Assembly (NCBI GenBank): GCA_902493795.1
Contig: CABUQZ010000009.1
Coordinates: forward strand, 3,329-67,328
Origin: an uncultured Clostridium sp.
GTDB taxonomy: Bacteria; Bacillota_I; Bacilli_A; RF39; UBA660
Direction of reading: 5' to 3'
Length of the DNA: 64,000 nt
Shown here: in pieces, positions 2,688 to 46,186 of the stretch
Numbering within the stretch: position 1 is the first letter of the stretch
How the letters are laid out: each line of letters starts with the position of its first letter
Program-made: the position numbers and the translations under genes
The notes under the pieces: model-generated
The model's database searches: none
The model's input: the letters and a program-made list of their open reading frames with translations, nothing else
Told to the model about the DNA's origin: nothing

Positions 2688-3770
2688 ATGAAAAAAAATA
2701 AATCACTTTTATTAATTATTACAGGATTAATATTTATAGGTATTGCTACTTTCTTCTTTATAAATGAAGAAAGTAGCGAGAATCCTACTAAAAAGCAAGA
2801 ATCTACAGGAAAAGAAGAAAAAAAAATAGAAGTAGAATTCGGTTCTGCTAATGGTGAAGAAATAGACATATCTTCTTATCCAAAAACAAAACTAAAAGAA
2901 ACAGGACGAGATTATTTAAATGGACGTAACCTTAAAGAAAAAAATAAAATAGAATATCCGTTGTTTATAGATAATAAAGGTTTATTTGATTCTTACTATC
3001 AAAAATTTTATATTTCACAAACTAAAGAAATGACAATATCATCAAATATTTCAAGTTATCCAACCCTTGATACTGCAATTAAATATTTTGAAGAAGAAAA
3101 TTTTGACCAAGAGTTATATACAAAATATAATTATTCAGTATCTAAAAACAAAGAAATTATTGATGAAAAACAATTTGTATACATTTTAAGTAATGCCATT
3201 GAAAAGAATAATGATTTCTATCAATTTTTAGATATAATTATTGAACTAGATGACTCTGATTATTTTCAATTAACATATTCATTAAAGAATAAGGTTTTTG
3301 ATGAAAAAGACATAAAATATATAATTAATAACATAAATATAGTAAAAAATGCCGCAAATTATCTTTTATTTGAAGGAAAAGATTCAAAAGGTTACTTTAC
3401 ATTCTTGAATAATGAAAATGAATTAAATAAACTATATTTAGATATAAATAAAGACAAATATAAAGAAATAGAAGATTCAAAAAATAATTTAGATAAAACT
3501 AACTTTGAATATTTAACAAATAATGAAAAAATATTTGTTAGCATAGAACATGAATATGAAGAAAATATAATAGATAGTTTAGTTATAAAATATAAATTTG
3601 ATAGTTATATAAAAAGTGAAAAAGATTATAATGGTAAAAAAATAATTATTTTAACCAAAAATAAGGAACATATTTATTATACAGAAATTGATAATAAAAT
3701 ATATTATATGGTAAAAACTAATTTATTATTTGAAGATATAAATGATTTATTTGATTACAATATAAAATAA
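2688..3770 (+). CDS. Hypothetical membrane-anchored protein (single N-terminal TM, Lys/Glu/Asn-rich ectodomain)
   Basis: GGGGTGA RBS lies 7 nt upstream. N-terminus KKNKSLLLIITGLIFIGIATFFFI looks like a signal anchor. Sits between the two giant paralogues. No recognisable motifs. Confidence 0.6.
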   Translation: MKKNKSLLLIITGLIFIGIATFFFINEESSENPTKKQESTGKEEKKIEVEFGSANGEEIDISSYPKTKLKETGRDYLNGRNLKEKNKIEYPLFIDNKGLFDSYYQKFYISQTKEMTISSNISSYPTLDTAIKYFEEENFDQELYTKYNYSVSKNKEIIDEKQFVYILSNAIEKNNDFYQFLDIIIELDDSDYFQLTYSLKNKVFDEKDIKYIINNINIVKNAANYLLFEGKDSKGYFTFLNNENELNKLYLDINKDKYKEIEDSKNNLDKTNFEYLTNNEKIFVSIEHEYEENIIDSLVIKYKFDSYIKSEKDYNGKKIIILTKNKEHIYYTEIDNKIYYMVKTNLLFEDINDLFDYNIK

Positions 3771-3862
3771 AGAAAGAAAAATAATTATATACTATTTTAT
3801 CTTTTGCAGCAAAAATTATACTTCTGTGATAAATAATGTAAAATATGTAAAATAATGTAAAA

Positions 3863-3895
3863 AAGAAAGAAATTATGTAAATCTTTCTTTTTTTC
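3863..3895 (+). terminator. Rho-independent terminator
   Basis: Perfect 8-bp stem aagaaaga/tctttctt with an 11-nt loop, followed by a T-run. Confidence 0.6.
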
Positions 3896-3943
3896 AATAC
3901 TTTTCTTTTTTTTTATGATACACTCCAATCAATAGGTGAGAAT

Positions 3944-6900
3944 ATGAAAAATAAAAAAGGTTTTACTTTAATCGAAATGATTGGTGTAGTAATTATTATT
4001 GGTATCATTGCAATAATTGCCTTTAATACTTTTACTGGTAATTTAAAAGAGTTTAGAGATGATTATTATACTGATTTAGAAAGAACTTTGGCTGAATCAG
4101 GAAAAGAATTTTTTAACGACAACAGAAGGTTTAGACCAGATTCAGTCTTTTCTGCACAAAAAGTAACATTAGATGTACTTGTTGCTAAAAATTATATTAG
4201 TGAAGTAGAAGATTACGATGGAAATTCCTGCAGAAATGATAGTTATGTAATAATAATAAAAGAAGGAAAAGATGATTATACATATCATTCTTGTTTAGTG
4301 TGTTCTGAAGATAATTTTGATAACACTGATGATTCGCTATGTGACCCATCGTGGTTTGATCCAAGCACAATTTCTTATGGACTAGGAACACTTCCAACAT
4401 TATATATCTATAAAGGAACATCAAGAGACAAGTTAAGAGAACAACTTACGCTTCCTATTTCAATCATAAAAAAGGATGCAAGTGGCAATATCTTAAAAGA
4501 GATAAGAGGAGATGGCATTGATGACGTTCCAACGATACTTCCAAAAAACATAGATGTTGTGGATCCAAATAAAGTTGGAACATACAAAGTTGAATATGAA
4601 TATATAGATGCAGCAAACGAAAAACAACAAAAAACAACGAATGTTATAGTATATGAAAATGATGCCCCAAGAACAAACATTACATATGAAAATATAGTAG
4701 CTAGAGATTTAGATGGAAATCCATCAATTGAAAGTGGTACATACTTATCAGGAAAATGGGTACAAAAAATAACATTAAACTTAACAGCTAATGCATTAAC
4801 TGATCCAGAATCTAAAGTTGTTAAATATCAATGGAATAAAAATGGTAAATGGCAAGATATATGTACTGAAGTGAGAAGTAATGGTTCATGTACAAGAGAA
4901 ATAACAACTGAGATGAATGAAGAAATAAGTTTTAGAACAATAGATTCTAAAGGAAACATAGGTATTGTAACAAGCCCAATAGTAATAAGAATAGATAATA
5001 CAAAACCTACTTGTACGCTAAAGAAAACAGGTACAATAAAAGATAATGGTTGGTATGTAAGTGATGTTACAGTATCATTTGATATAAAAAATGATTTAGT
5101 TCCATCAAACGGAAATCATAATGCTATAAGTCAAGTAAAAATAAGTAATATCACTAGTATGCCAGGAAATATATCAAGAACATCATCAAATGATAATAAA
5201 GTACATAGCGACGATACAGATAATGTAGAATATCGTGGATATGTTGAAGATAAAGCAGGAAACTTCTATGTTTGTAAAACAACACTAAAGAAGGATGGAA
5301 CAGCGCCATCTTGTAGCATTAATCTTTCGGGTACAAAAGGAGATAATGACTGGTATACAACAAACGTAGATGTGTCATTTAAAACTCATTCAGATAACTT
5401 AAGTGGAGTAGCAAAATATGGAATAGGTAGTTACGACGGAAATAGAAATATTACTCATAAAGCAGATACATCAAGTGTAACATACACTGGATACATAAAA
5501 GATAATGCAGGAAACACAGCAACATGCTCAAATTCATTTAAAAAAGATGGAACAGCGCCATCTTGTAGCATTAGTCTTTCAGGTACAAAAGGGGATAATG
5601 ACTGGTATACAACAAACGTAGATGTATCATTTAGAAGTAATACAGATAACTTAAGTGGAGTAGCAAAATATGGAATAGGTAGTTACGACGGAAACAGAAG
5701 TACTACTCATACAGCAGATACATCAAGTGTAACATACACTGGATATATAAAAGATAATGCAGGAAACACAGCAACATGTTCAAATTCATTTAAAAAAGAT
5801 GGAACAGCGCCATCTTGTAGCATTAATCTTTCAGGTACAAAAGGGGATAATGACTGGTATACAACAAATGTAGATGTGTCATTTAAAACTCATTCAGATA
5901 ACTTAAGTGGAGTAGCAAAATATGGAATAGGTAGCTACGACGGAAACAGAAATACTACTCATACAGCAGATACATCAAGTGTAACATACACCGGATACAT
6001 AAAAGATAAAGCAGGAAACACAGCAACATGCTCAGATTCATTTAAAAAAGATGGAACTAAACCTTCATGTGGAAATTGGAGTGGTGAAAGTACTTCGTGG
6101 ACAAAAGAAAATAGAGAAATAAGTGTAGGATGTAGCGATTCCACAAGCACTTGTGATAAATCTAAATATAGTACTACAATAAGTAGTGGAACAACATCAA
6201 CAAAAAGTATTTCATTTGAAATCAAAGATAAAGCAGGAAACAAAGAAACATGTAGAAAAACAGCAAATGTATACGTAGATAAAGAAGCTCCAACATGTAC
6301 TACTTCAAAATCAAATGAAGGAACAACAAGTGGAGTTAACGTATCAATATCTTGCAATAATGTCGGAAATGGATCAAATGTAACATGCCCATCAAGTGAG
6401 AATGGAGTAAAAAGTAGTAAAACATATACAGTTAGAGATGCAGCAGGAAATACAAGCACTTGTAATGTTTCAGTAACACCACAATCTCAAAAAAGAACAA
6501 ATACTTGTTCAACAGGTAAAAGATGTTCAAGTGCAAGTTGTGAAACATATACTGAATGTAAAACTTCAGCCTGTGGTGTTAATAAATACAAATCATGTAA
6601 AAATTCAGCTTGTGGTACAGAAAAATGTAATTGTTCAAGTTGCTATACTACAAAGAACACTTGTGTGGGAGGATACGTTGATAAAATAATATACGACACA
6701 GGTGATAGTTTCACTAGCCAAGATTGTTATAATAAGCAAGGTGTAGTTGATAGCAGTGGAAGAAGATGTATAAAGAGTGAATGGAATAGCTGTAAAACAG
6801 GATCACCTAATGAATGTGTATATGGATGTGGAACTTGCAATAAAACTTGTAGAACAGAAGCCTGTGGAATAGAATCCTATAATTCTTGTAGAACGTCAGC

Positions 6901-7042
6901 TTGTGGATGTGAAACATATTCTCGAGATATAAATAAATGTGGATGTGAAACATGGAAAGGATGGACAGGATGGAGCAACGCAAATTGTACCCCATCATCA
7001 TCAAATTCATCACAAACTGAATGTAGAACAGTTTACAATTAA
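3944..7042 (+). CDS. Giant modular type IV pilin-like (class III signal peptide) protein with tandem Cys-bracketed Ig/HYR-like modules and a Cys-rich C-terminal region
   Basis: N-terminus MKNKKGFTLIEMIGVVIIIGIIAIIAF has the prepilin motif K-G|F-T-L-I-E followed by a hydrophobic helix. GGTGAG RBS upstream. At least 6 modules end in D(N/K)AGN..(T/S)C...KKDG. The last roughly 190 aa carry many Cys, including repeated (K/R)(T/N)(S/E)ACG motifs. Confidence 0.85.
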   Translation: MKNKKGFTLIEMIGVVIIIGIIAIIAFNTFTGNLKEFRDDYYTDLERTLAESGKEFFNDNRRFRPDSVFSAQKVTLDVLVAKNYISEVEDYDGNSCRNDSYVIIIKEGKDDYTYHSCLVCSEDNFDNTDDSLCDPSWFDPSTISYGLGTLPTLYIYKGTSRDKLREQLTLPISIIKKDASGNILKEIRGDGIDDVPTILPKNIDVVDPNKVGTYKVEYEYIDAANEKQQKTTNVIVYENDAPRTNITYENIVARDLDGNPSIESGTYLSGKWVQKITLNLTANALTDPESKVVKYQWNKNGKWQDICTEVRSNGSCTREITTEMNEEISFRTIDSKGNIGIVTSPIVIRIDNTKPTCTLKKTGTIKDNGWYVSDVTVSFDIKNDLVPSNGNHNAISQVKISNITSMPGNISRTSSNDNKVHSDDTDNVEYRGYVEDKAGNFYVCKTTLKKDGTAPSCSINLSGTKGDNDWYTTNVDVSFKTHSDNLSGVAKYGIGSYDGNRNITHKADTSSVTYTGYIKDNAGNTATCSNSFKKDGTAPSCSISLSGTKGDNDWYTTNVDVSFRSNTDNLSGVAKYGIGSYDGNRSTTHTADTSSVTYTGYIKDNAGNTATCSNSFKKDGTAPSCSINLSGTKGDNDWYTTNVDVSFKTHSDNLSGVAKYGIGSYDGNRNTTHTADTSSVTYTGYIKDKAGNTATCSDSFKKDGTKPSCGNWSGESTSWTKENREISVGCSDSTSTCDKSKYSTTISSGTTSTKSISFEIKDKAGNKETCRKTANVYVDKEAPTCTTSKSNEGTTSGVNVSISCNNVGNGSNVTCPSSENGVKSSKTYTVRDAAGNTSTCNVSVTPQSQKRTNTCSTGKRCSSASCETYTECKTSACGVNKYKSCKNSACGTEKCNCSSCYTTKNTCVGGYVDKIIYDTGDSFTSQDCYNKQGVVDSSGRRCIKSEWNSCKTGSPNECVYGCGTCNKTCRTEACGIESYNSCRTSACGCETYSRDINKCGCETWKGWTGWSNANCTPSSSNSSQTECRTVYN
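5301..6056 (+). repeat. Three near-identical in-frame 252-bp (84-aa) tandem repeats inside the pilin-like gene
   Basis: The string cagcgccatcttgtagcatta recurs at 5301, 5553 and 5805 (period 252). Units encode TAPSCSI(N/S)LSGTKGDNDWYTTNVDVSF...YIKD(N/K)AGNTATCS(N/D)SFKKDG. Confidence 0.95.
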
Positions 7043-7070
7043 AAATTGATAATATATTTTAAAACAGAAA

Positions 7071-7102
7071 GGGTAAACAAAAAAATATGTTTACCTTTTT
7101 TT
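7071..7102 (+). terminator. Rho-independent terminator of the pilin-like gene
   Basis: Stem gggtaaaca ... tgtttacc followed by ttttttt. Confidence 0.75.
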
Positions 7103-9371: not shown

Positions 9372-9838
9372 TAATAAGTCTAATATCTTTTATTCTTGAC
9401 GTAATAATACTAAATATTACAAAATATAATCATGAAGTTATGCTTATTTTTCCAATGTTTACTATAGTATCTTTATTATCTTCAATTTATTTTAGAAAAG
9501 ATAAACTAATAAACTATTTTACACTTTCTTTATATTTTTCTTTAACAGGACTGTTTGTTTATCCAATTTTTTTCTATTTATTAGAGTTATATATCATTAG
9601 AAAAGATTTAAAAAATTTTAATATTAATAATTATCTTTTTAAAGTTATGTCATCATTAATAGTATTTGATTCTTTATTCTTCTTACTTACTAAAATACCT
9701 AGAATTACTTCTTATAATATTTCTCTTTTATTTAACAAAATAGTGATAACTCTTCCAATAAATTTTTTGTATTCAGTAATATTATTTTACATAAATAAAG
9801 TTCTAAAACAGCATGACAAGAAGTATAAATTAGTATGA
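9368..9838 (+). CDS. mreD: Rod shape-determining protein MreD (polytopic membrane protein)
   Basis: 156-aa polytopic hydrophobic protein, translationally coupled (ATGA) to mreC. Call rests on position and size. Confidence 0.7.
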   Translation: MIISLISFILDVIILNITKYNHEVMLIFPMFTIVSLLSSIYFRKDKLINYFTLSLYFSLTGLFVYPIFFYLLELYIIRKDLKNFNINNYLFKVMSSLIVFDSLFFLLTKIPRITSYNISLLFNKIVITLPINFLYSVILFYINKVLKQHDKKYKLV

Positions 9839-10428
9839 CAGAATTAGAAAAATATAAAAAAAAGAAAAAAAATAATAATCATAATAATATAGAAAAAAGT
9901 AATTATTTAAATATTATTCTAAAAAAATCATTGTTGTCTATTATACTTTTCCTAGTTTTTTTAATCTCTACTAAAAATAACGAAAGTTTTAAAAATATCA
10001 TTTATGAAAATGTATATGGAAATAACATATCTTTTGCTAAATTTAATTCCTGGTATCAAAAAAACTTTGGAGATTTGTTCCCTTTAGGAAAGATTGATGA
10101 TGTTCCAGTTTTTAATGAGAGTATAACTTTTTCTAAAAAAGAAAAGTATTTGGATGGTGTTTTACTAACAGTAGAAGATAATTACATTGTCCCATCATAC
10201 ACAGATGGTATTGTTGTATATATTGGAGAAAAAGAAAACTATGGAAATACCATTATTATAGAGGATGAAAACAATGTAAATTATTGGTATTCAAATGTTA
10301 ATGTTTTAAATATAAATATATATGACTATGTAAAAAAGGGTGAGTATATAGCAGAAGCAAAAGATAATAAACTAATTATGCTATTCCAAAAGAAAGGTAA
10401 AATAGAAGACTATCAAAAATATATTTAA
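9835..10428 (+). CDS. Membrane protein with a degenerate LytM/M23 domain, SpoIVFA-like
   Basis: Basic N-terminus, one TM (LLSIILFLVFLIS), and a C-terminal M23-like fold (DGIVVYIGEKENYGNTIIIED...YWYSNV...VKKGEYIAEA) that lacks the catalytic His residues. Lies immediately upstream of a SpoIVFB-like M50 protease, the same order as B. subtilis mreCD-(minCD)-spoIVFA-spoIVFB. Confidence 0.6.
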   Translation: MTELEKYKKKKKNNNHNNIEKSNYLNIILKKSLLSIILFLVFLISTKNNESFKNIIYENVYGNNISFAKFNSWYQKNFGDLFPLGKIDDVPVFNESITFSKKEKYLDGVLLTVEDNYIVPSYTDGIVVYIGEKENYGNTIIIEDENNVNYWYSNVNVLNINIYDYVKKGEYIAEAKDNKLIMLFQKKGKIEDYQKYI

Positions 10429-10501
10429 AGTATCCTCTCTTACTTATATATTTATATTTGCAAGTCTTCTTACTGGGCATTTTAAAGAAATAATATTATA
10501 T

Positions 10502-11137
10502 ATGTCTTTAATCATTTTTCATGAAATAGGGCATTTAACATCAGCTAAAATATTTAACTGGCAGGTAGATAAAATATATATTTATCCCTTAGGAGGTATC
10601 ACAAGATTTAATGACAAGATAAATAAACCTCTAGTAGAAGATCTAATAGTAACCTTGATGGGACCAATTTTTCAAATTATTTTAGCTTATTTTTTAATAA
10701 AATTAGATAGTAGAGTATATCTATTTAATAAAACATTACTATTATTTAATCTACTTCCAATAGCACCTTTAGATGGTAGTAAATTAGTAGCAGTTTTTCT
10801 ATCTTTAATTATAAGGTATAAAAAGAGTTTATATTTAAATATAGTGATATCTTTTATTACATATTTATTTGTTCTTTCATATTTCATTTTATACAAAAAT
10901 TCGATTATCTTTTTATTTGTAATATTTCTCTTGTTTTTTAAAATAATTGATGAAAAAAATAAAATATCTTTCTATTTTGATAAGTTTTTATTAGAAAGAT
11001 ATTTATATATTTTTAAGTTTAAGAAAACAAAAGTTGTTAAAGATGTAAATAATTTTTATAAATATAAGAATAATATTGTGAAAACAAGTAAACTAAAAAC
11101 AGAAAAAGAGCTTCTTAAAGAGTATTTTGAAAAATAA
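10502..11137 (+). CDS. spoIVFB: Site-2 (M50) intramembrane metalloprotease, SpoIVFB-like; true start probably upstream of the called ATG
   Basis: HEIGH zinc motif at residues 7-11 of the ATG-started ORF; NLLPIAPLDGS motif (M50 NxxPxxxxDG); polytopic. The in-frame upstream sequence (from 10406) encodes ...SSLTYIFIFASLLTGHFKEIILY, resembling the SpoIVFB N-terminus (..LLTGH..). Confidence 0.75.
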   Translation: MSLIIFHEIGHLTSAKIFNWQVDKIYIYPLGGITRFNDKINKPLVEDLIVTLMGPIFQIILAYFLIKLDSRVYLFNKTLLLFNLLPIAPLDGSKLVAVFLSLIIRYKKSLYLNIVISFITYLFVLSYFILYKNSIIFLFVIFLLFFKIIDEKNKISFYFDKFLLERYLYIFKFKKTKVVKDVNNFYKYKNNIVKTSKLKTEKELLKEYFEK

Positions 11138-11140
11138 TAA

Positions 11141-12601
11141 TTATTCTTTTTTAACTTTTATATTTGTTGCACTAGGTCCATGGACTAAATTACCATCAAT
11201 ATCAAACTTTGATGAGTGACAAGGGCAGTCCCATGTTTTATCTGTATAGTTAAATATAAGACTACATTTCATATGTGGGCATTTATTGTAAACAATATGA
11301 GCATCCCCTGAAGAATCAACGTATTTTCCATACCAAATTCCATCTTTTTTAAAGACTGTCACATCATCATTATAAAATGGTTGATTCTTTACTAGTTTAC
11401 TTAATATAAAACTGGTTCCATTTGAAAAACTATTTGCTGTATACTTAAAAAAGTTACTCATTCTAGTAGGATTAAAAGTATCACTATACTCATTTTTTAT
11501 ATTTAAAATAGAATCACTTATAATCTTAGCTGATATAGTACCATTTAAAAATCCCCATGTAGAATATCCTGTTGCAATATATAAGTTATCATCTAGTTTT
11601 CCAGAGAAGGGGATATAGTCAGGACTAATCACATCGATATTGGACCATTTATAAATAGGTTTTTTATGGTATTTTGATTGATATTCCAAAGAAAATTTAT
11701 CTTCTTCACTTTTTGAGTCGATCATCTTACTTATTGATTTAGAATGAGAACAGTATATCTCGTAGTTTCCATCATCTGTGTAGTATCTAACTGAATAATC
11801 ACCAATTTGGGAAATAGCATTAAACATTTTATTTTTATCGACAAGTGAAGCAAGTAAATAGCTTTTTTCTACTGTTGTTTTAAAAGGGATAAGTCCTAAA
11901 GATATTAAAAAAGGATAATGGGTTGCAACAATAACTATTTTTGATTTAATAACATTATTATTTACATTGGTATAGTAATATCCATCTTTAAAATCAATAT
12001 CAGTTGCTAAAGAGTTTTCATAAATTTTTATCTTATTCTTAACTACATCTTTTAGACCAGTTAAATATTTATGTGGATTAAAAACAAAAGTGTCTCTTAC
12101 TTCTATAGAATAAATATTATTAGGAATATCTTTATTTTCTACAACATTATATAAAATATTATTCCTTTTTAATATTTTTTCTATTTTTTTAATGTCTTTA
12201 ATCTCTTTTTCACTAGTAGCAAAAAGAAAAGAGCTATTAGGTTCCAAATTACAATTAATCTTTTCCTTAGTAATTATATCTTTAATAATCTTTAAAGCTT
12301 CTAACTGGCTTTTTAAATAAACGTCTTCTTTTTCAATACTTCCTTTTACTAAAGAATCTTGTAAATATGTAAGTTTTCCAGTTGAATACGCACTAACTCC
12401 AAATCCAATGGTTCCTTTATCGACTAAAATAATATCTTTACCTTGTAGAAAATAACAACAAGAAAGCCCAGTAATACCACCACCAATAACAAGTATCTCA
12501 GAAGTTAAATCTTTATCTATTTCATTAAAAGAGGAAAAATTAGCATCTTTTAACCAAATACTTTCATTCATAAAATCATCACCTATATATGTAATGAACA
12601 T
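11141..12601 (-). CDS. FAD-dependent oxidoreductase fused to a C-terminal Rieske [2Fe-2S] domain (YhfW-like)
   Basis: Dinucleotide-binding motif VIGGGITGLS near the N-terminus. Rieske motifs CPHMKC...CPCHSSKF at the C-terminus. Confidence 0.8.
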   Translation of the reverse strand: MFITYIGDDFMNESIWLKDANFSSFNEIDKDLTSEILVIGGGITGLSCCYFLQGKDIILVDKGTIGFGVSAYSTGKLTYLQDSLVKGSIEKEDVYLKSQLEALKIIKDIITKEKINCNLEPNSSFLFATSEKEIKDIKKIEKILKRNNILYNVVENKDIPNNIYSIEVRDTFVFNPHKYLTGLKDVVKNKIKIYENSLATDIDFKDGYYYTNVNNNVIKSKIVIVATHYPFLISLGLIPFKTTVEKSYLLASLVDKNKMFNAISQIGDYSVRYYTDDGNYEIYCSHSKSISKMIDSKSEEDKFSLEYQSKYHKKPIYKWSNIDVISPDYIPFSGKLDDNLYIATGYSTWGFLNGTISAKIISDSILNIKNEYSDTFNPTRMSNFFKYTANSFSNGTSFILSKLVKNQPFYNDDVTVFKKDGIWYGKYVDSSGDAHIVYNKCPHMKCSLIFNYTDKTWDCPCHSSKFDIDGNLVHGPSATNIKVKKE

Positions 12602-12743
12602 AATTATGATAAATTATTCATAAAGTTTAAAAGATAATTTAAATTATTAGGAAATAAGTTATTAAAAAGAAGTTATTTCTTAATAAAAGTGCTATTGTAA
12701 ATTTAACTTAAAAATGATATAGTACTGATGTAAGGATGATAAG

Positions 12744-12965
12744 ATGAGAAAAAGAAAATGTGAGCTTTGTGGAGCTACAATTAGCAAAAACGATGCTTTT
12801 TGCAAAACTTGTGGAAACTCCATAAAAAAAGATAAAGATATAACTGATGCAGTAATAGAAGATCCAAGTAGTAAAAGTAACACTAAATTCTTAGTTACTA
12901 TAATTTCTATAATTATAATTATTATTTTAGTGCTACTAGTATACTTTCTATTATTTGGAAATTAA
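12744..12965 (+). CDS. Small zinc-ribbon membrane protein
   Basis: CELCGATISKNDAFCKTCG zinc ribbon plus a C-terminal TM (FLVTIISIIIIIILVLLVYFLLF). Preferred over the overlapping antisense ORF 12692..12883. Confidence 0.6.
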   Translation: MRKRKCELCGATISKNDAFCKTCGNSIKKDKDITDAVIEDPSSKSNTKFLVTIISIIIIIILVLLVYFLLFGN

Positions 12966-13002
12966 AAAATAATAAAAACATATAATTCTAATGGAGGATT
13001 AT

Positions 13003-13695
13003 ATGTTTTTTAAATTGTTAAATAAATTAAAAGAATTATTTGTTTTTACAGCAAGTTATTCAAATAATGTCTTCTTAGATCCTTTAAGTGAAGAAGAAGA
13101 AAAAGAAATGCTTCAAAGAATGAAAGAAAATGATAATGAAGCAAGAAATACTCTAATTGAACACAACTTGCGATTAGTTGCTCACATCGTAAAAAAGTTT
13201 GACTATAAAAGTGTTGATCAAGATGATTTAATTAGCATTGGAACAATTGGACTTATTAAGGGTGTTGATACATTTCAAAAAAGTCATGGAACAAAACTTA
13301 CTACTTATTGTGCTAAATGTATAGAAAATGAAATCTTGATGTATTTTAGAAGCAACAATAAAACAAATAAGAATATTTCATTAAATGAATCAATTGGCTT
13401 TGATAAAGAAGGAAATGAAATAACTATTCTAGATATTCTTAAAATGCCTTCTCCTGATTATATAAATGATATATCAGAAAAAGATAACATTAAGCTTTTA
13501 AAACAGTATTTCAACGTTTTAACTGATAGAGAAAAAGAAATCATAATGAAAAGGTATGGATTAGGAAATTACGAAGAAAAAACACAAAAAGATATAGCAA
13601 AAGAATATAAAATATCTAGAAGTTATGTCTCTAGAATTGAAAAAAGAGCTCTTATGAAAATGTTAAGAGAATATCTAAAAAATAACAAAGAGTAA
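13003..13695 (+). CDS. sigK: Sporulation sigma factor, pro-sigma-K type (uninterrupted)
   Basis: IEHNLRLVAHIVKKF, DLISIGTIGLIKG, TYCAKCIENEILMYFR and ISRSYVSRIEKRAL are sigE/sigK-group signatures. The N-terminal prosequence KLKELFVFTASYSNNVFLDPLSEEEE parallels B. subtilis pro-sigK (..KELVFLVSYVKNNAFPQPLSSSEE). GGAGG lies 5 nt before the ATG at 13003, so the ATG at 12991 lies within the RBS. Confidence 0.85.
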   Translation: MFFKLLNKLKELFVFTASYSNNVFLDPLSEEEEKEMLQRMKENDNEARNTLIEHNLRLVAHIVKKFDYKSVDQDDLISIGTIGLIKGVDTFQKSHGTKLTTYCAKCIENEILMYFRSNNKTNKNISLNESIGFDKEGNEITILDILKMPSPDYINDISEKDNIKLLKQYFNVLTDREKEIIMKRYGLGNYEEKTQKDIAKEYKISRSYVSRIEKRALMKMLREYLKNNKE

Positions 13696-13814
13696 GGAAG
13701 AAAAACACACAATTAGTTTATTTCTATAGACTTTTTTTTCTATTACAAGTATAATTAACTTATAATAGACGAATGATATGAGAAGTGTGTATACATCATA
13801 GTTTAGGAGGATAT

Positions 13815-15290
13815 ATGAAATATTTTAAAGTGTTGTTAACTATTATACTAGCCTTTGTTGTTGTTCCAACAATTGTTTTAGCAGCAGAAAATAGCATTAG
13901 TTTGGAATGTAATACAGTTGTAAGTAAAGGTGATGAGTTATCAGTTGATATTGTGCTTACAACTAAAGATACGACAAATGGTTTTGCAGCAAGCTTTACG
14001 TATGAGAAGTCAGCACTAGAACTTTTAAGTATTGAAAATAAAGATAACTGGGAAAGAAATCAAGAAGGGGAAACAGAAAGTGAAAATGGTCCACTTACTT
14101 TGAAATTTACTCATCCTAATGGAATTTCAGGAAAAACTACTGTTGCAACTATCAGGTTTAAAGTAAAAAAAGATGCTACTAAATCAAGTGCTATCTTAAC
14201 AATAGAAGGAACTGTAACTGCCAAAGAAGATGGAACAACTAGTACATTAGAAAAAGTAGAAAAGAAAATAGATATAAAATCAACAGATAATACACTAAAA
14301 GATTTAAAATTTAATGGAGAAACATTTATTAATTTTAAACCAACACAATATAGCTACACAAAAGAAGTAGATTCAAGCGTCATAACAGCTAATATTGAAG
14401 CAGAATTAAATGACCCAACAGCAAAATTTAAAGATAAATATGCACCAAAAACAGGGCAACCACTAGATTATGGTAAAAATGTTTTTGAAATAATAGTAGT
14501 ATCAGCTTCTGGGGAAGAAAAAAAATATGTAATAACAATTGTTAGAGCAGATAATCGTGGAACAAACAATAATTTAAAAAGTTTATTAATAAATTCAAAT
14601 CCAAAGTTATTTACCTTTGATAAAAGTGAACTAGAGTATACAATCACAACTCACAAGTTAAAAACTATCGATGTTACAGCAATACCAGAAGATGAAAAAG
14701 CAAAAGTTGATATTAAAAAACCAGATGAATTAAAAATTGGTCTTAACGAAGTAACAATAACTGTAACAAGTGAGAAAAAAGAATCAAAAGTATATAAAAT
14801 AACAATTAATAATGTAGATACTGATATAGATACAACACTAAGTAACATTGAAATATTTGGGCTAGACGAAGAATTTAATTTCGAAAAAGATAAACTAGAC
14901 TATGAAGTATTATATAAAGAAAAATATAAAGACACAATTGTTATAAAACCAGTATTAAGTAATAAAGATGAAGCAGAATATGATAGAGCAAAACTAGAAA
15001 GTGATATTTCAAACTTAGGACCAGATAAGAAAGTAACAATAACAGTAAAAGCCAAAGATGGAACAAAAGGAGTAGAAAGAGTATATACAATTACCTTTAA
15101 AAAAGACACAAGAATAAACTTTTTCTTGATTTTAGGATTAATTATATTTATAGTATTACTTGTGATTTTCATAAGATTAGTATTAGAGAAAAAAAGAAAT
15201 GACAAACAAAATACTAATAACAATAACAAAAAAGAGAAAGAAGAAGAATTAGTTAAGACTAAAAAATTAGAAAAAGTAAGAGTAGAATAA
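13815..15290 (+). CDS. Surface protein: signal peptide, cohesin-like N-domain, 3-4 cadherin-like beta-sandwich repeats, C-terminal TM anchor
   Basis: AGGAGG RBS before the ATG at 13815 (MKYFKVLLTIILAFVVVPTIVLAAE). Repeats start at NTLKDLKFNG / NNLKSLLINS / TTLSNIEIFG and end like KKYVITIVR / KVYKITINN / RVYTITFKK. C-terminal TM FFLILGLIIFIVLLVIFI followed by a basic tail. Confidence 0.7.
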   Translation: MKYFKVLLTIILAFVVVPTIVLAAENSISLECNTVVSKGDELSVDIVLTTKDTTNGFAASFTYEKSALELLSIENKDNWERNQEGETESENGPLTLKFTHPNGISGKTTVATIRFKVKKDATKSSAILTIEGTVTAKEDGTTSTLEKVEKKIDIKSTDNTLKDLKFNGETFINFKPTQYSYTKEVDSSVITANIEAELNDPTAKFKDKYAPKTGQPLDYGKNVFEIIVVSASGEEKKYVITIVRADNRGTNNNLKSLLINSNPKLFTFDKSELEYTITTHKLKTIDVTAIPEDEKAKVDIKKPDELKIGLNEVTITVTSEKKESKVYKITINNVDTDIDTTLSNIEIFGLDEEFNFEKDKLDYEVLYKEKYKDTIVIKPVLSNKDEAEYDRAKLESDISNLGPDKKVTITVKAKDGTKGVERVYTITFKKDTRINFFLILGLIIFIVLLVIFIRLVLEKKRNDKQNTNNNNKKEKEEELVKTKKLEKVRVE

Positions 15291-26622: not shown

Positions 26623-27531
26623 ATGGAAGTAATAATTAAAGATAAGAAAAGTGATATCATAACTGCTCAAAAAATTGTTAGCCGTGATTTTAAGATGAAT
26701 TCTAATGAAAACTTTTATATAAATTCAGGAATATATAATTTCACTAATGAGGCAGTAGCAGATCCTCTTTATAAAAGCGAGATAACAAATAAAAACAAAA
26801 TATTATCAGTTATTGCTTCAGGTGACCAAATTCTAAATTCGATATTGTTAGGTAGCACAGATATAACAGGTTTTGATATAAGTAGATTTCCTAAGTACTA
26901 CTTATTATTAAAAATTGCTGCTATACATGCTTTAGATAAAGAAGAATTTTTAGACTTTTTCTCATTTCATGGAACGGAAGAAGAAGTTGAAAGAAAATTT
27001 GATAAAATAATAGAACATTTAGACCCTGTAGCACTAGAATTTTGGCAAAGCTTATATGATTATTTTGAACCGTATGAAATATCAAGTTCAATGTTATTTA
27101 CAAGTAGTTATGTAGATAGATTAATGGCAGTAGTTTTTAATCCATATTTACAAGGTGATAAAGCATATGATGAATTAAAAGAAAAGTTACAAGATGTAAA
27201 ACTAAATTTAATTGATGGTAATATTTATTCTTTAGTAAGAGAACATAAATTTAAGGAACCATTTGACCTTGCTAATGTTTCAAATATTTTAGGAGGTAAT
27301 AAACAAAAAGATAATATAGAACTTCTTGAAAAAATACCATTAAATACTAATGCTAGTATACTTGGATATATGTTTTATTATGCGGTAGATGAAGAGAAAG
27401 AAAAAGAAAAAAAAGAAGTAGAAAAAAGTCTTACAAATAATAATATAACTACTAAAGTAAATGATGCTACATTAACAAATGGCGCAGGACTAATTCTAAC
27501 TAAAAGGAAAAGAAAAATATGGAAAATGTAA
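26623..27531 (+). CDS. DUF3419/BtaA-like SAM-fold protein, type A copy 1
   Basis: Motif I-like ILSVIASGDQILNS, acidic residue at ITGFDIS, and FPKYYLLLKIAAIHALDKEEFLDFF. Basic C-terminus LTKRKRK. Confidence 0.55.
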   Translation: MEVIIKDKKSDIITAQKIVSRDFKMNSNENFYINSGIYNFTNEAVADPLYKSEITNKNKILSVIASGDQILNSILLGSTDITGFDISRFPKYYLLLKIAAIHALDKEEFLDFFSFHGTEEEVERKFDKIIEHLDPVALEFWQSLYDYFEPYEISSSMLFTSSYVDRLMAVVFNPYLQGDKAYDELKEKLQDVKLNLIDGNIYSLVREHKFKEPFDLANVSNILGGNKQKDNIELLEKIPLNTNASILGYMFYYAVDEEKEKEKKEVEKSLTNNNITTKVNDATLTNGAGLILTKRKRKIWKM

Positions 27532-28406
27532 AAGAAGATGTTAGAATAGCACAACATGTAATAGAAGGGGATTTATTAATAATATTTGAACCAACATTTC
27601 ACTCACATTCTATTATCTATCCATCTACAAATGAAAAAATAAGCTCTCCTATATATAAAGATAGTTTAAAAAATAAAGAAAAAATACTATCGGTAATTGG
27701 TTCAGGTGATCAAATACTAAATTCAGTATTATTAGGGAGTAAACAAATAACAGGATTTGACATTTCATGTTTTACAGGTTATTATCTAAAACTAAAAATT
27801 GCAGCTTTAAAATCATTAAATTATCACGAATATCTTTCTTTCTTCTCATGTCAAAGTAAAAATAGATTTTCAAAAAAAATATATGAAAAAATAATTCCAT
27901 ATTTAGATAGTGACACAGAATATTTCTGGAGTAGTATTTTTAGTTTGTATGATGCTAAGGTAATAGGTTTTTCCAATTTGTTTGTAATGGTAAATAATAA
28001 TAAATTTAAACAAAATAACCCATATCTAGAATCAAAAGAAGAATATGAACTTCTAAAATCAAAAATAAAAGACATCGATATAAACTTGATATATAAAGAT
28101 ATATTTGAACTTGTAAATGAATTAACTGATAAATATAATTTGATAAATCTTTCGAATATTGTTGATTACAACATTAAAGGAGTAACGGTGGGAAACATTG
28201 TAAAAATTGATTGTCGATCTAGGGAAAAAATTAATAGACTGTTAAGAAACCTACCCATGGAAAATGAAGGAATAACTCTTATGTATTCAATGGATTATAA
28301 TATGGCAAGAATGATAGATGTTATTTTAACATCAAATGAAATGGAACATAATGAATATGAAATCGATTGCTTTCATAAATTAATTTTATCAAGAAAAAGA
28401 AAATAA
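27519..28406 (+). CDS. DUF3419/BtaA-like SAM-fold protein, type B copy 1
   Basis: ILSVIGSGDQILNS, ITGFDIS, and FTGYYLKLKIAALKSLNYHEYLSFF. C-terminus LSRKRK. 13-nt overlap with the preceding gene. Confidence 0.55.
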   Translation: MENVKEDVRIAQHVIEGDLLIIFEPTFHSHSIIYPSTNEKISSPIYKDSLKNKEKILSVIGSGDQILNSVLLGSKQITGFDISCFTGYYLKLKIAALKSLNYHEYLSFFSCQSKNRFSKKIYEKIIPYLDSDTEYFWSSIFSLYDAKVIGFSNLFVMVNNNKFKQNNPYLESKEEYELLKSKIKDIDINLIYKDIFELVNELTDKYNLINLSNIVDYNIKGVTVGNIVKIDCRSREKINRLLRNLPMENEGITLMYSMDYNMARMIDVILTSNEMEHNEYEIDCFHKLILSRKRK

Positions 28407-28420
28407 AAGGGGAAATAAAA

Positions 28421-29296
28421 ATGATAGTAAATAGTTTTGAAGTAGAAAAAGATATAGATAAAGCAGAAAAAGTAATAACTTCATCTTTGGAAAAAAATAA
28501 TAAAAGCTTTGATAGTAATTCAGGAATATATTTATTTAGTAATGAAGATATGTCTGATAATGTTTATAGAAGAAACCTACAAGAAAAAAAGAATTTACTA
28601 TCAGTTATTGGATCAGGTGATCAAGTAATTAACTCTATTTTATTTGGAAGTGAAAATATAAAAGCATTTGATATAAGTAATTTTCCAAAATATTTACTTC
28701 TTCTTAAACTAGGAGCAATAAAAAGTCTTACAAAAGAAGAATTTATGTCTTTCTTTGTAACAGAATCTAATGAAAAAGAATTATTAACTCTATTTAAAAA
28801 AATAGCAAATAATTTAGATGAAGATACACTAAGGTTTTGGTATTATTTAATTTCTAATTTTGGTATAGAACTAATAAGAGATTCCGAGTTGATAAAAAAA
28901 GTAAGAATGGAATATATGAATCCTTTTCAAAATCCTTATTTAATTGATAGGAATTCATTTGAAATAATAAGAGAAAGACTACAAGATGTAAAATTATCTC
29001 TTTTTGATGAGGACATTTATTCTCTTATAAAAAAAGAAAATAAAAAAGAGAAATTTGATCTTGCAAATTTATCCAATATAACAAGTTACAATAGAAGAAA
29101 GGATAATTTAGAGTTACTTGAAAGTATTCCACTAAGTGAAGAAGGCTATATCTTAAATTATTTTTTTTACAATGGATATAGACCAAAAATCATAGGATCA
29201 AAACCATGTCCAAGCCTATCAAATGAAAATATTGAAAGTACTATTTTTGACCTAGAAAATAAAAAAGGTGGATTAATACTTTCAAAAAGAAAATAA
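28421..29296 (+). CDS. DUF3419/BtaA-like SAM-fold protein, type A copy 2
   Basis: LLSVIGSGDQVINS, FPKYLLLLKLGAIKSLTKEEFMSFF, and FDLANLSNI. C-terminus LSKRK. Most similar to 26623..27531. Confidence 0.55.
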   Translation: MIVNSFEVEKDIDKAEKVITSSLEKNNKSFDSNSGIYLFSNEDMSDNVYRRNLQEKKNLLSVIGSGDQVINSILFGSENIKAFDISNFPKYLLLLKLGAIKSLTKEEFMSFFVTESNEKELLTLFKKIANNLDEDTLRFWYYLISNFGIELIRDSELIKKVRMEYMNPFQNPYLIDRNSFEIIRERLQDVKLSLFDEDIYSLIKKENKKEKFDLANLSNITSYNRRKDNLELLESIPLSEEGYILNYFFYNGYRPKIIGSKPCPSLSNENIESTIFDLENKKGGLILSKRK

Positions 29297-29312
29297 GAAA
29301 GAAGATGATAAA

Positions 29313-30176
29313 ATGAAAGATATAAGAAAAGATATAGATGAAGCAGAAAAATTAATAGAAGGAGCTCTATACAATCCATTTAAACCATTTTCTAGTCACT
29401 CATCAATTTATTCTTTTACTAATGAAAAAGCAAACAGCGAAATCTACAAAAAGACACTAGAAAATAAAGAAAAAATATTAACAATAGTAGGTTCAGGAGA
29501 TCAAATCCTTAATTCCATATTACTAGGAAGTAAAGATATAACGGCAACTGATATTTCTAATTTTACAGAGTATTATTTTAATTTAAAGTTAAAAGCAGTA
29601 AAAGCGTTAACATACGAAGAATATTTAGAGTTTTTCGACTTGAAAAGTAGAAAATGTTTTAGAAAAGATTTATACGAAAAAATATTGCCATTTTTAGATA
29701 GAGAAACTGCTTACTTTTGGAGTGTTTTATTTAGTTCTCATAAAACTACAAAGATAAGAAAATCTGATTTTTTTATGCCTGAAAACAATAGCTTTTTTAA
29801 GTCTATAAATATTAAAGATTATATTAAAAACAACCCTTATTTATCATCTCCTGATAATTATAAAAAACTAAAATCAAAAATAAATGATGTAAATATTAAT
29901 ATAATAATTGGAAATATTTTCGCTCTAATTGGTACATTAAGAAATGGTTATGATTTAGTGAATGCTTCCAATATAATGGATTATCATCATGGAAGTGAAT
30001 ATTTGTTCTTTCTAGAGCAATGCGACTTAAAAGAAGATGGAGTAATACTAGGATACTCAATGGCACGTGGAATAAATGCTGATAATTTAGAAAGAGCCTA
30101 TACAAATGGAATAGTGTTATCAGAAGGTCATCAATTAGATAAAAAACATAAGTTACTATTAACAAGAAAAAGATAA
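29313..30176 (+). CDS. DUF3419/BtaA-like SAM-fold protein, type B copy 2
   Basis: ILTIVGSGDQILNS and FTEYYFNLKLKAVKALTYEEYLEFF. C-terminus LTRKR. Most similar to 27519..28406. Confidence 0.55.
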   Translation: MKDIRKDIDEAEKLIEGALYNPFKPFSSHSSIYSFTNEKANSEIYKKTLENKEKILTIVGSGDQILNSILLGSKDITATDISNFTEYYFNLKLKAVKALTYEEYLEFFDLKSRKCFRKDLYEKILPFLDRETAYFWSVLFSSHKTTKIRKSDFFMPENNSFFKSINIKDYIKNNPYLSSPDNYKKLKSKINDVNINIIIGNIFALIGTLRNGYDLVNASNIMDYHHGSEYLFFLEQCDLKEDGVILGYSMARGINADNLERAYTNGIVLSEGHQLDKKHKLLLTRKR

Positions 30177-44521: not shown

Positions 44522-46186
44522 ATGTTAGAAAAATTTAAAGGGAATGTTATGAAACTTACATTGGGTGGAATAGCATTATTTATTTTCGGAATTTTTATAG
44601 GAATTCAATTAAACTCAGGAGCAATTGATTCGATTCAAGGATTTTTGTTTAATGTAACAAGAAACTCTAGCGCAACAAACTCAAACGCCACAAACTCAAA
44701 TGCCACAAACTCAAATGCCACAAACTCAAACGCAACGAATTCAAATGCAACGAATTCAAATGCCACAAACTCAAATGCAACGAATTCAAATGCCACAAAC
44801 TCAAATGCCACAAACTCAAACGCAGAAGATCCTAGTGCAACAGATAATATAATATATCTTGAAAGCTTTCATTTGATAACTAAAGAAGCAAATGCTGGAG
44901 ATACTGTTTACGTAAGTTTCGAAACAAGTGGTGCATGTCTTAATGGTATAACTGTCACATTAAAAAATCAAAAAAATAATACAACCTTTACTGCATTAGT
45001 AAAATCAATAGATGATGACCCATATATTATTTTACCAAGCAATTTATCTACATCTTCATACATTGTTACAGATGTATTACTAATTGGTTTGAACAGCGAT
45101 AAAACAACATTTAGTAAACATTACAACAATAATAGTATAGAATTAAAAGATACTGTCTCTGTTAAAGAAAAAGTTGTTGTTACCCCTGTAAAACTTAATA
45201 GTATTTCTATTGATCCAACTGATGTATCAGTGGGTAGTAAGATTAATGTCACATTTGATGTTAATAAATCTTTACAAAGCTTAAAACTAGAATTTAAATC
45301 TACAGATAATAAAACAATGGTTGTGTATGTTAAATCATTAACAAATAAACCATATTTTGAAATACCTACAACAACAGTTGGTGGAACATATTCATTATAT
45401 AGTGCTACATTAACTTCTTCTGATAGTACAAAAGTCTATACAACGAATGGATCTAATGGATCTTTAAAATTTAATTTTAATTCAAAACTTGTAATTAGTG
45501 ATGGAACAGAAACTTCATTTATATATAATAACGAAGATATTAATTCACAAATAATTACTAAGCTATATAATTCTAAAGAAAAAACAGAAATTACAATTAA
45601 TGCTGATTCAAACACAATAATTGATAAAGAATTATTTAATACAATTAAAGGAAAAGATAAAACTTTAATAATTAATCATAGTGATAATCAACTTGTATTT
45701 AATGGAAATGATATTAAGAATTCTAAAACTATAGATGTTAATATGTTAATCGAAGAAACTACAGCAAATGAAAATATTAGAAAATTAGTTTCAAAAGGTA
45801 TTATTGTTAACTTCCCAGATAATGGTAATCTTCCTGGAAATGCTTTAGTAAGAGTTAAAGCAACAGAAGATATTAATAAACTACTTGGTGATAAGATTTA
45901 TGTATATTTTTACAATGAATCTTCTAATAATTTCTCTGTTATAGCAGAAGATGTTAAGAAAAAAGATGACGGATATTATGAATTTACAATATCACATAAT
46001 TCTGATTATCTATTGGTAAATAAAAAAATAGATAGCAAATTAGTTGTATCTCAAAATATTGATAACGTAGTTTCATTCCAAAAAAGTAACGGTACATACT
46101 TGTTATTAATTGGAGTAGGAGTAGTTGTAGCTATATCATTAGCTATAGTTATCATAGTAGTTAGGAAAAAGAAAGAGATTAAATAA
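44522..46186 (+). CDS. Surface protein with N-terminal TM/signal anchor, (ATNSN)x10 low-complexity linker, beta-rich domains and C-terminal TM anchor
   Basis: N-terminal segment LTLGGIALFIFGIFIGIQL, then the repeat, then a C-terminal TM LLLIGVGVVVAISLAIVIIVV followed by RKKKEIK. Confidence 0.7.
   Translation: MLEKFKGNVMKLTLGGIALFIFGIFIGIQLNSGAIDSIQGFLFNVTRNSSATNSNATNSNATNSNATNSNATNSNATNSNATNSNATNSNATNSNATNSNAEDPSATDNIIYLESFHLITKEANAGDTVYVSFETSGACLNGITVTLKNQKNNTTFTALVKSIDDDPYIILPSNLSTSSYIVTDVLLIGLNSDKTTFSKHYNNNSIELKDTVSVKEKVVVTPVKLNSISIDPTDVSVGSKINVTFDVNKSLQSLKLEFKSTDNKTMVVYVKSLTNKPYFEIPTTTVGGTYSLYSATLTSSDSTKVYTTNGSNGSLKFNFNSKLVISDGTETSFIYNNEDINSQIITKLYNSKEKTEITINADSNTIIDKELFNTIKGKDKTLIINHSDNQLVFNGNDIKNSKTIDVNMLIEETTANENIRKLVSKGIIVNFPDNGNLPGNALVRVKATEDINKLLGDKIYVYFYNESSNNFSVIAEDVKKKDDGYYEFTISHNSDYLLVNKKIDSKLVVSQNIDNVVSFQKSNGTYLLLIGVGVVVAISLAIVIIVVRKKKEIK
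44672..44821 (+). repeat. Ten in-frame 15-bp tandem repeats encoding ATNSN
   Basis: Two synonymous unit types are interleaved: gccacaaactcaaa(t/c) and gcaacgaattcaaat, plus one gcaacaaactcaaac. Confidence 0.95.

Follow-up and report, generated by a model that had tools for sequence, protein, structure and literature searches.

A 1032-residue protein with a type IV prepilin N-terminus from an uncultured gut lineage of Bacilli: a candidate giant modular pilin

Can a protein of more than one thousand residues be a subunit of a type IV pilus? The question is raised by a gene on contig CABUQZ010000009.1 of an uncultured Clostridium sp. (assembly GCA_902493795.1; GTDB lineage RF39, UBA660), from which we analysed positions 3,329 to 67,328, a stretch of 64,000 nucleotides with a GC content of 26.9% that is referred to here as the window and to which all coordinates refer unless a locus is named. 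The target gene is an open reading frame (ORF) at 3944-7042 on the + strand that starts with ATG and encodes 1032 residues, and the mature protein calculated after removal of a short leader has 1026 residues and a mass of 111.6 kDa. With moderate confidence, we read this protein as a giant, multi-module type IV pilin, presumably of the minor kind. The rationale for this reading is built up below from the N-terminal signal, the pilin-like head, the family to which that head belongs, and the filament genes of related bacteria.

The protein begins with MKNKKGFTLIEMIGVVIIIGIIAIIAF, and its cleavage is predicted as MKNKKG|FTLIEM. The leader peptide MKNKKG (3944-3961, + strand) is basic and six residues long, which is also the median leader length among the homologues, and it ends in the Gly at position -1, directly after which the prepilin peptidase site is predicted. 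Phe at +1, Glu at +5 and a run of ~20 hydrophobic residues follow, so that every element of a class III signal is present. The hydrophobic segment α1N, FTLIEMIGVVIIIGIIAIIAF (3962-4024, + strand), carries Phe1, Glu5 and Gly14 of the mature protein; pilins are anchored by this segment, both in the membrane and within the core of the filament. A preliminary description of this locus had called the N-terminus that of a textbook type IV prepilin and had proposed to compare it with prepilin profiles. The residues are as written there, and both profiles score above their curated cut-offs, with 28.5 bits against 21.2 for Pfam N_methyl (PF07963) and 21.9 bits against 16.3 for TIGR02532, which bears the claim out.

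A search of 5.8 billion proteins returned 434 homologues, the best 120 of which were used for counts of motifs and lengths. The motif G[F/Y][T/S]xxE lies within the first 70 residues of 105 of these 120, and 69 have exactly GFTLIE. The exceptions without the motif are GC-rich "large repetitive proteins" that have ordinary Sec signals and share only the repeat modules. Three homologues (P0044, P0048 and P0061) have the degenerate motif GITLVQ, in which Phe1 and Glu5 are lost and the rest is retained, and this indicates that the prepilin motif decays when it is not needed. When the first 330 residues of 22 members were aligned, G6, F7, T8, L9 and E11 were invariant and G20, which is Gly14 of the mature protein, was kept in at least 90%; Pro22 is present in some members. 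Gly14 and Pro22 are the residues that let α1N melt in assembled pilins. For Pro22, this role is supported by earlier work (PMC10628169). The same alignment contains an invariant F-R-D-D-Y-Y motif and four invariant cysteines (C96, C117, C120 and C133). Glu5 is dispensable for the cleavage of prepilins. It is needed for the assembly of type IV pili (T4P), and the salt bridge that it forms has been described (PMC10191384, PMC10628169). Retention of Glu5 in most of the homologues makes a plain membrane anchor unlikely, since a buried charge would be odd there. As judged from these sequences, the class III signal is genuine and is maintained by selection.

The signal belongs to a module of 145 residues (aa 1-145; 3944-4378, + strand) whose limits follow from AlphaFold2 models, alignment and conservation. 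No other part of the protein is as conserved as the head of this module, aa 28-145, where the median identity is 54%, compared with 30-45% elsewhere. A stand-alone prepilin of 138 aa in another locus (L015) matches the full length of the head, all four cysteines included, with 43% identity (E 8e-26), and this small protein stops exactly at the module boundary. AlphaFold2 models of aa 1-330 and aa 1-148 (pLDDT 85-86) both contain a continuous α1 helix of 51 residues (9-59), after which strands at 71-75, 101-106 and 112-117 form a small β-sheet; this predicted order of a helix and then strands is compatible with a pilin fold. A search of the PDB with the sequence profile of the head found type IV pilins only, in the α1 region only (geopilin at 2.8e-8, MshA, PilA and PilE1 of Streptococcus sanguinis). 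Residues 1-145 thus appear to behave as a pilin module, with a modelled head fold compatible with that of pilins.

How widespread is such a head, and on how many long proteins does it occur? A profile of residues 1-148 was searched against 1.84 billion representatives at 50% identity, which yielded 102 clusters at E≤1e-30; with a limit of E≤1e-10 the number was 2001. In every one of the best 150 clusters the match lies at the N-terminus. By length, 34 of these 150 have at least 1000 residues, which answers the preliminary description's question about pilins of that size, while 70 have 600-999, 21 have 250-599 and 21 have 120-249; the longest representative has 1614 residues. The best 120 homologues of the whole protein range from 569 to 1799 aa, with a median of 1010 aa. 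By these searches, the target is no singleton and is a member of a family with at least 100 clusters, many members of which are longer. The relatives in the head family, among the matches listed, are from metagenome-assembled genomes (MAGs) of uncultured Bacilli from human, rabbit, goat, reindeer and chicken guts, with labels that include Candidatus Onthousia, Candidatus Scybalousia, "Tenericutes" and Acholeplasmataceae. In the literature, a text search for pilins called "giant" or "multimodular" did not bring up this family. The same head is joined in paralogues and homologues to distal modules that match MBG_2, Flg_new, Ephrin_rec_like, PT-HINT, TSP1 and ALK_LTK_GRD. Two homologues, P0078 and P0099, have five to six Cys-rich Ephrin_rec_like repeats followed by a PT-HINT/intein-like domain, which makes up the last ~140 residues, ends 7-11 residues short of the C-terminus and has no toxin domain after it. 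Other homologues terminate in a TSP1 or an ALK/LTK glycine-rich domain.

In the target, the head is followed by two β-sandwich domains predicted by AlphaFold2. The first (aa 146-239; 4379-4660, + strand) has a weak Bact_surface_Ig-like match, and the second (aa 240-354; 4661-5005, + strand) contains C307 and C316 and ends in DSKGN...NTKPTC. A module of 107 residues, delimited by motifs and conservation (aa 355-461; 5006-5326, + strand; GWYVSDVTVSF...DKAGN...KKDGTAPSC), precedes three near-identical modules of 84 residues (aa 462-713; 5327-6082, + strand), which correspond to a 252-bp tandem repeat of 3.1 copies and 94% identity placed at 5286-6057 by Tandem Repeats Finder. Two shorter, degenerate modules (aa 714-789 and 790-844; 6083-6475, + strand) have DKAGN and DAAGN, extra cysteines and a sub-threshold similarity to HYR. 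Together with its stop codon, the Cys-rich tail (aa 845-1032) occupies 6476-7042 on the + strand; it has 26 cysteines in 188 residues, in agreement with the ~190-residue tail packed with Cys that had been described, and contains two copies of the motif C-x-T-x-A-C-G-x3-Y-x-S-C-x2-S-A-C-G. The protein has five D[KN]AGN sequences, one DAAGN and one DSKGN, and six P[ST]C boundaries at residues 355, 455, 539, 623, 707 and 783. The earlier count of at least six Cys-bracketed modules accordingly holds, and by the D-x-x-G-N motifs there are seven.

What kind of module this is can be said less firmly. The preliminary description saw a likeness to HYR and Ig-like repeats, of which the D-x-AGN...C end motif stands, but both profiles remain below threshold. 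The best HYR score (PF02494) is 20.3 bits against a threshold of 21.7, covers only the last 20 positions of the profile and falls to 11.6 bits for an isolated pair of modules; Bact_surface_Ig-like reaches 19.2 bits against 27. The repeat modules and the tail have no above-threshold match in sequence searches of Pfam, NCBIfam or the PDB. When the model of aa 1-330 was searched with Foldseek, Ig-like matches dominated, all with E above 1e-3, and the best were fibrillar adhesins and S-layer proteins. Among the best 120 homologues, 47 have the Cys-rich tail, and in the 25 inspected it ends about 20 residues or less from the C-terminus. A Hint domain was found neither in the whole target nor in its tail searched in isolation. 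The C-terminus, ...SSQTECRTVYN, has no LPXTG motif, other wall anchor, hydrophobic stretch or basic tail. With no C-terminal wall anchor and with the variable modules lying C-terminally, an attachment point at the N-terminus fits.

If the protein were a pilin, where would the machinery that assembles it be encoded? An uncultured gut Bacilli MAG (L019) contains a 433-aa GspE/PilB-type T2SSE ATPase (TIGR02533, E 6e-139; TIGR02538, E 3e-131) that lies 7 kb from the gene for a prepilin of 631 aa; the head of this prepilin shares 30% identity with that of the target (E 6e-19) and is joined to the same kind of modules. This true T2SSE was recognised with a motif stricter than the Walker-A expression used at first. 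Walker-A proteins of ~600-750 aa beside prepilins in six gut-Bacilli loci, matched with that first expression, were identified by Pfam as ABC transporters, FtsK and HerA, and that lead was dropped. Every one of the best 120 listed clusters of homologues of the L019 ATPase is at least 79% identical to it; one listed homologue bears the label Candidatus Onthousia faecipullorum, and a MAG of that species has a pilin with the head described here (L017). In two lineages the ATPase gene is monocistronic (L093:8858-11329 and L102:2827-5344) and, in conserved synteny, is flanked by two divergently oriented genes for small prepilin-like proteins (NKNG|FILVE and NKG|ITSVE), with a gene for a PDZ and Lon_C protease adjoining the set. 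No platform protein or prepilin peptidase is encoded near the ATPase in these two loci, and no platform protein was found in the loci examined. A MAG of mouse-gut Bacilli offers a further case of prepilin genes dispersed among housekeeping genes: a Mur-ligase gene there has genes for three N_methyl proteins of ~200 aa on its flanks, with ABC transporter genes adjoining (L076:7666-11349). The conserved T2SSE ATPase with its small pilin genes indicates that a filament system is present in the group. When the ATPase of the target's own species was sought through shared samples, the cluster selected proved to come from other samples. From the gene content of these relatives, a type IV filament system exists in related gut Bacilli and its genes are scattered; we infer from these relatives that the target's own genome has such machinery too.

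The target does not stand alone in its locus, as this species has three tandem giant prepilin genes, of which it is the third. The order is a 90-aa thioredoxin, a 399-aa membrane protein, giant prepilin 1 (1159 aa), a 378-aa membrane protein, giant prepilin 2 (1231 aa), a 360-aa membrane protein and the target, and downstream follow a small zinc-finger ORF, a SPOR-like protein and then radC, mreC and mreD. Giant prepilin 2 (full protein P0006) is cut by the start of the window, so that its C-terminal 884 codons are at 1-2654 on the + strand; it has an N_methyl head and the same modules as the target, plus MBG_2 and Flg_new. Between it and the target, at 2688-3770 on the + strand, lies the gene for the 360-aa protein, which has a single membrane pass and to which no function is assigned by homology, with no above-threshold match in sequence searches of Pfam, NCBIfam or the PDB. 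It is paralogous to the 378-aa membrane protein (28% identity, E 2e-9), which implies that the unit of a giant gene and its neighbour was duplicated. In one other strain the 360-aa protein is replaced by a protein of 146 aa.

Strain variation was followed in seven same-species contigs (L001-L007) from metagenome assemblies in ENA, including the ZEEV15 and SAYO22 sets, which we take from their names to be human-gut studies. The target of L006 lacks exactly one 252-bp unit (5701-5952) and has 948 aa, and a further variant forms an 864-aa cluster, so the repeat number differs between strains. L004, on the 129-kb scaffold_97 of assembly ERZ28657878, matches the target gene with 0 mismatches in 3099 bp, and the same scaffold contains the last ORF of the window (L110). 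The ORF is intact in five of the seven loci; the other two, L003 and L005, have a nonsense change from AGA to TGA at codon 318 (4895). In L002, the thioredoxin gene and the gene for the 399-aa protein, which has an N-terminal thioredoxin-like CPHC, lie at 3733-5191, ~10 kb upstream of the start of the window. Each giant prepilin of the three-gene array has 36-48 cysteines. On the strength of weak family matches, the thioredoxin pair beside the array could be a candidate dedicated extracytoplasmic thiol-disulfide system, comparable to the action of BdbDC on ComGC. Arrays in other species have up to five giant prepilin genes (L008). Within this five-gene array, at L008:9416-9979, is a gene for a 187-aa protein in which a SipW-like, signal peptidase I-type S-M-S-P-T motif was seen by eye. 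The single giant genes of other species sit among cell-division, tRNA-synthetase or sporulation genes.

We propose that the target would be inserted in the membrane by its class III signal, that prepilin peptidase would then cut off MKNKKG and expose Phe1, and that a type IV filament machine would take up the 145-residue pilin module. Incorporation would be at or just below the tip, because the shaft has no room for ~880 additional residues. The two β-sandwich domains, the seven D-x-x-G-N modules and the distal Cys-rich knob would project outward and act as an extended adhesin that works through its C-terminal end. Strain-level variation of the surface would then result from the differing distal modules of the three tandem paralogues, from changes in repeat number and from occasional knock-outs. 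This reading is based on the full cleavage and assembly motif including Glu5, the conserved head, the existence of stand-alone versions of it, the polarity of a constant N-terminal and a variable C-terminal part, and the precedent of S. sanguinis.

Several observations weigh against it. To our knowledge, no characterised pilin exceeds ~60 kDa, and we know of no precedent for the passage of so large a subunit through an assembly machine and a cell wall. A Foldseek search of the PDB with the head model (1-148) gave no significant match (best E 0.87), and a search of BFVD, a viral library and a poor choice for this purpose, gave nothing significant with the same model. The pilin fold of the head accordingly rests on the order of its secondary structure and on its sequence; of the structural test proposed beforehand, the α1 helix and a small sheet were predicted, but no significant Foldseek match to a pilin was obtained. 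The premature stop at codon 318 indicates that the gene is dispensable. Finally, assembly genes are not at hand. A six-frame motif scan, Pfam searches and reading of the translations revealed no PilB-, PilC-, PilD- or PilM-O-like gene in the window, as had been reported; Pfam was run on 20 ORFs, precomputed Pfam matches covered both ends, and the remaining translations were read by eye, while the only hit of the motif scan was a single prepilin motif, with no Walker-A motif of the T2SSE kind and none of the A24 kind. The 10 kb to the left (L002) and the 10 kb to the right (L110) also encode no peptidase for prepilins, no ATPase for assembly and no platform protein. No A24 peptidase was seen in any of the gut-Bacilli loci fetched, and none of the giant genes inspected is beside machinery except that of L019, at 7 kb. 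The statement that this locus is uncoupled from any assembly operon is thus correct in that none is nearby, but the arrangement is not special, as the ATPase gene of the relatives is monocistronic and their prepilin genes are scattered.

Would another role for the N-terminus account for these observations? It may be only a signal-anchor, cleaved or not, for a membrane-bound fibrillar adhesin whose stalk of about ten domains spans the wall and exposes the Cys-rich end, with no filament involved. We consider this main rival rather unlikely, although it agrees with the placement of the giant genes among housekeeping genes and never in an operon with assembly genes, with the lack of machinery in the window and in the 10 kb to each side, and with the habit of other predicted surface proteins in the window, which use a plain C-terminal transmembrane helix and no LPXTG. 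About ten β-sandwich modules could suffice to cross a Gram-positive wall. Moreover, P0044, P0048 and P0061 have kept the body of the protein after losing Phe1 and Glu5, which suggests that the body can function without a canonical signal. However, near-invariance of Gly-1, Phe1 and Glu5 (105 of the 120 homologues) would be surprising in a simple anchor, no other part is as conserved as the head, which is also found by itself as a small pilin, and the clade has a conserved assembly ATPase accompanied by small pilin genes.

That ATPase scores highest against GspE, slightly above PilB, and its flanking genes encode small pilins only, with no obvious major-pilin gene among them. Both facts would suit a substrate of a pseudopilus similar to that of the type II secretion system (T2SS) or of Com systems, which docks transiently and is then released to the medium or the wall, possibly by cleavage between head and stalk. 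The Hint domains that end P0078 and P0099 would in addition indicate processing after export in part of the family. Nevertheless, the known T2SS substrates have Sec or Tat signals and not class III signals, the target has neither a Hint domain nor a recognisable cleavage site, and there is no sign of release in the present data, so that we regard this possibility as very unlikely. The least probable reading of those considered is that the gene is a decaying, unexpressed and repeat-rich relic. The nonsense codon in two of the seven strain loci and the variable repeat number could be taken in that sense, but an ORF of 3.1 kb has stayed intact in an AT-rich genome (~27% GC) and in the other five loci, cysteines and motifs are conserved across 434 homologues, and the gene has a Shine-Dalgarno (SD)-like sequence and a terminator-like hairpin of its own.

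The reading of the target as a giant pilin can be compared with known systems. Raynaud et al. 2021 (PMC8179133) listed over 1200 modular pilins, which fall into 264 architectures; some have many extra domains, and the largest cited there has 860 aa, from Candidatus Falkowbacteria, with 12 IPR013211 repeats. The earlier view of known modular pilins as having one grafted domain each was therefore too strong. The target combines a pilin module with modules that are not specific to T4P, which is what defines a modular pilin. It resembles the 860-aa Falkowbacteria protein in having an N_methyl head followed by many tandem repeats, and it differs in phylum and in repeat type, while its family reaches greater lengths and has diverse distal modules. 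The nearest likeness in a monoderm host is with PilB (vWA) and PilC (lectin) of S. sanguinis, which share with the target a short-leader class III signal with Glu5, no other anchor, a small pilin module at the N-terminus with non-pilin modules behind it, and a role, predicted for the target, in displaying an adhesin at the tip. These two keep Glu5 and sit at the tip beneath an apex pilin that lacks it; they are unusually large, carry one grafted module of known fold each, are encoded in the pil operon and have been located in pili by experiment (PMC8179133, PMC10628169). Unlike them, the target has 1032 residues (up to ~1800 in its family) and about ten extra modules, none of which passes a Pfam cut-off. 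Its distal end is rich in Cys, it belongs to a tandem array of paralogues, it lies far from assembly genes, and it is known from its sequence alone.

Other tip components are also similar in part. CofB and TcpB of T4b pili, ComZ of Thermus and GspK of the T2SS likewise consist of a pilin module with extra structural domains, and are located at the tip, where they serve in the initiation of assembly. They have ~35-60 kDa and one or two extra domains, and each is encoded in the operon of its own system; GspK lacks Glu5, whereas the target retains it. Like the PilY1/PilC proteins of diderm T4aP, the target is a modular protein of more than 100 kDa with interchangeable effector modules, and it would resemble PilY1 in being presented at the pilus tip; PilY1, however, is not a pilin, has a Sec signal and docks on the minor-pilin complex through a C-terminal β-propeller. 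Gram-positive fibrillar adhesins (SraP, Rib/alpha-like proteins and stalks of Ig repeats) share with it a stalk of tandem β-sandwiches and variation in copy number. Their polarity is the reverse, with a Sec signal, an N-terminal adhesive domain and a C-terminal LPXTG or wall anchor, and the target, with its class III signal and no LPXTG, is not a sortase-anchored adhesin by these marks. A C-terminal PT-HINT domain of the kind found in polymorphic toxins is absent from the target and present in some other members of the family, P0078 and P0099.

The target gene has putative expression signals of its own. An SD-like GGTGAG (3935-3940, + strand) lies 3 nt 5' of the ATG, and the start context TAGG(T/A)GA(G/T)AATATG is common to the target and both paralogous giant genes of the locus. 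A hairpin resembling an intrinsic terminator, with a 14-bp stem and then a T run (7066-7101, + strand), would end the transcription unit. Upstream of the target gene is a 10-bp tandem repeat, AAATAATGTA, in 3.3 copies (3831-3862), and downstream of this repeat, still upstream of the gene, is a hairpin with a T run (3866-3895). A comparable layout is present upstream of the first giant gene in the locus, whose 5' leader is nearly identical (ACACTCCA...CAATAGG). There is a single copy of ATGTAAAATA in the whole window.

Elsewhere in the window are cell-wall and sporulation-type genes of Firmicutes, namely mreCD, M23/M50 peptidases, a sigma factor, murE/F and ddl. In several loci, sporulation genes are found no more than 10 kb away from a giant prepilin gene: in the window, spoIVFA/FB-like M23/M50 peptidases and a sigma factor are at 9835-13695, and in other loci (L009, L010 and L116) spoIIGA-sigE, SpoIVA/SpoVIF and Cse60-sigma-SpoVA are near giant genes. 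These neighbours were rejected as evidence of a link to sporulation, because we judge proximity within 20 kb to be compatible with chance in the small genomes of spore-formers. Two predicted surface proteins, encoded at 13785-15290 and 44522-46186, are anchored by a C-terminal transmembrane helix and have no LPXTG; one has Cohesin and Cadherin-like domains, and in the other, ATNSN is repeated 12 times in tandem near the N-terminus. Four tandem paralogous genes at 26623-30176 encode proteins of 287-302 aa, the first of which matches DUF3419 (E 1e-13). The HisRS gene at 47701-49155 encodes a C-terminal extension of ~55 residues rich in Cys, Asp and His (...CEDDCDCDHDCDCDCDDDCDCDEEDECKCHHENHECCHGNCHCKEED), which from its sequence looks like a metal-binding tail and is unusual for HisRS.

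The target extends the known concept of modular pilins and does not break from it. What appears to be new is its size (1032 aa, and up to ~1800 in the family), the sharing of one head by many distal modules, the occurrence in tandem arrays, a terminal domain rich in Cys, and, in this uncultured clade of the gut, a presumed machinery whose genes are dispersed. A wider hypothesis, which is possible and which we offer tentatively, is that this AT-rich clade of gut Bacilli, with its dispersed filament genes, has expanded one head into at least 100 lineages of giant pilins of 0.6-1.8 thousand residues, with tandem arrays and interchangeable distal modules (Cys-rich knobs, Flg_new/MBG, and Ephrin-like repeats with a terminal Hint domain). 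The pilus tip would then be the organism's main and variable platform for the display of adhesins, and subunits two to three times as large as the largest characterised pilin would be polymerised.

If type IV filaments do carry the target and its relatives, the sizes known for pilin subunits, which end at ~60 kDa, would be extended to 110-190 kDa, and a mechanistic puzzle would follow as to how the machine and a Gram-positive wall pass a subunit with at least ten folded domains. The dispersed organisation of the genes is a warning against concluding from a missing operon that there is no pilus. If the N-terminus is instead only an anchor, the family would be a case of bacteria using a class III signal as a general surface anchor, a use so far best known from archaea. 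As giant pilins, these proteins would represent the main strategy of surface display in widespread, uncultured Bacilli of human and animal guts, and would provide a supply of candidate modules for binding to hosts or glycans.

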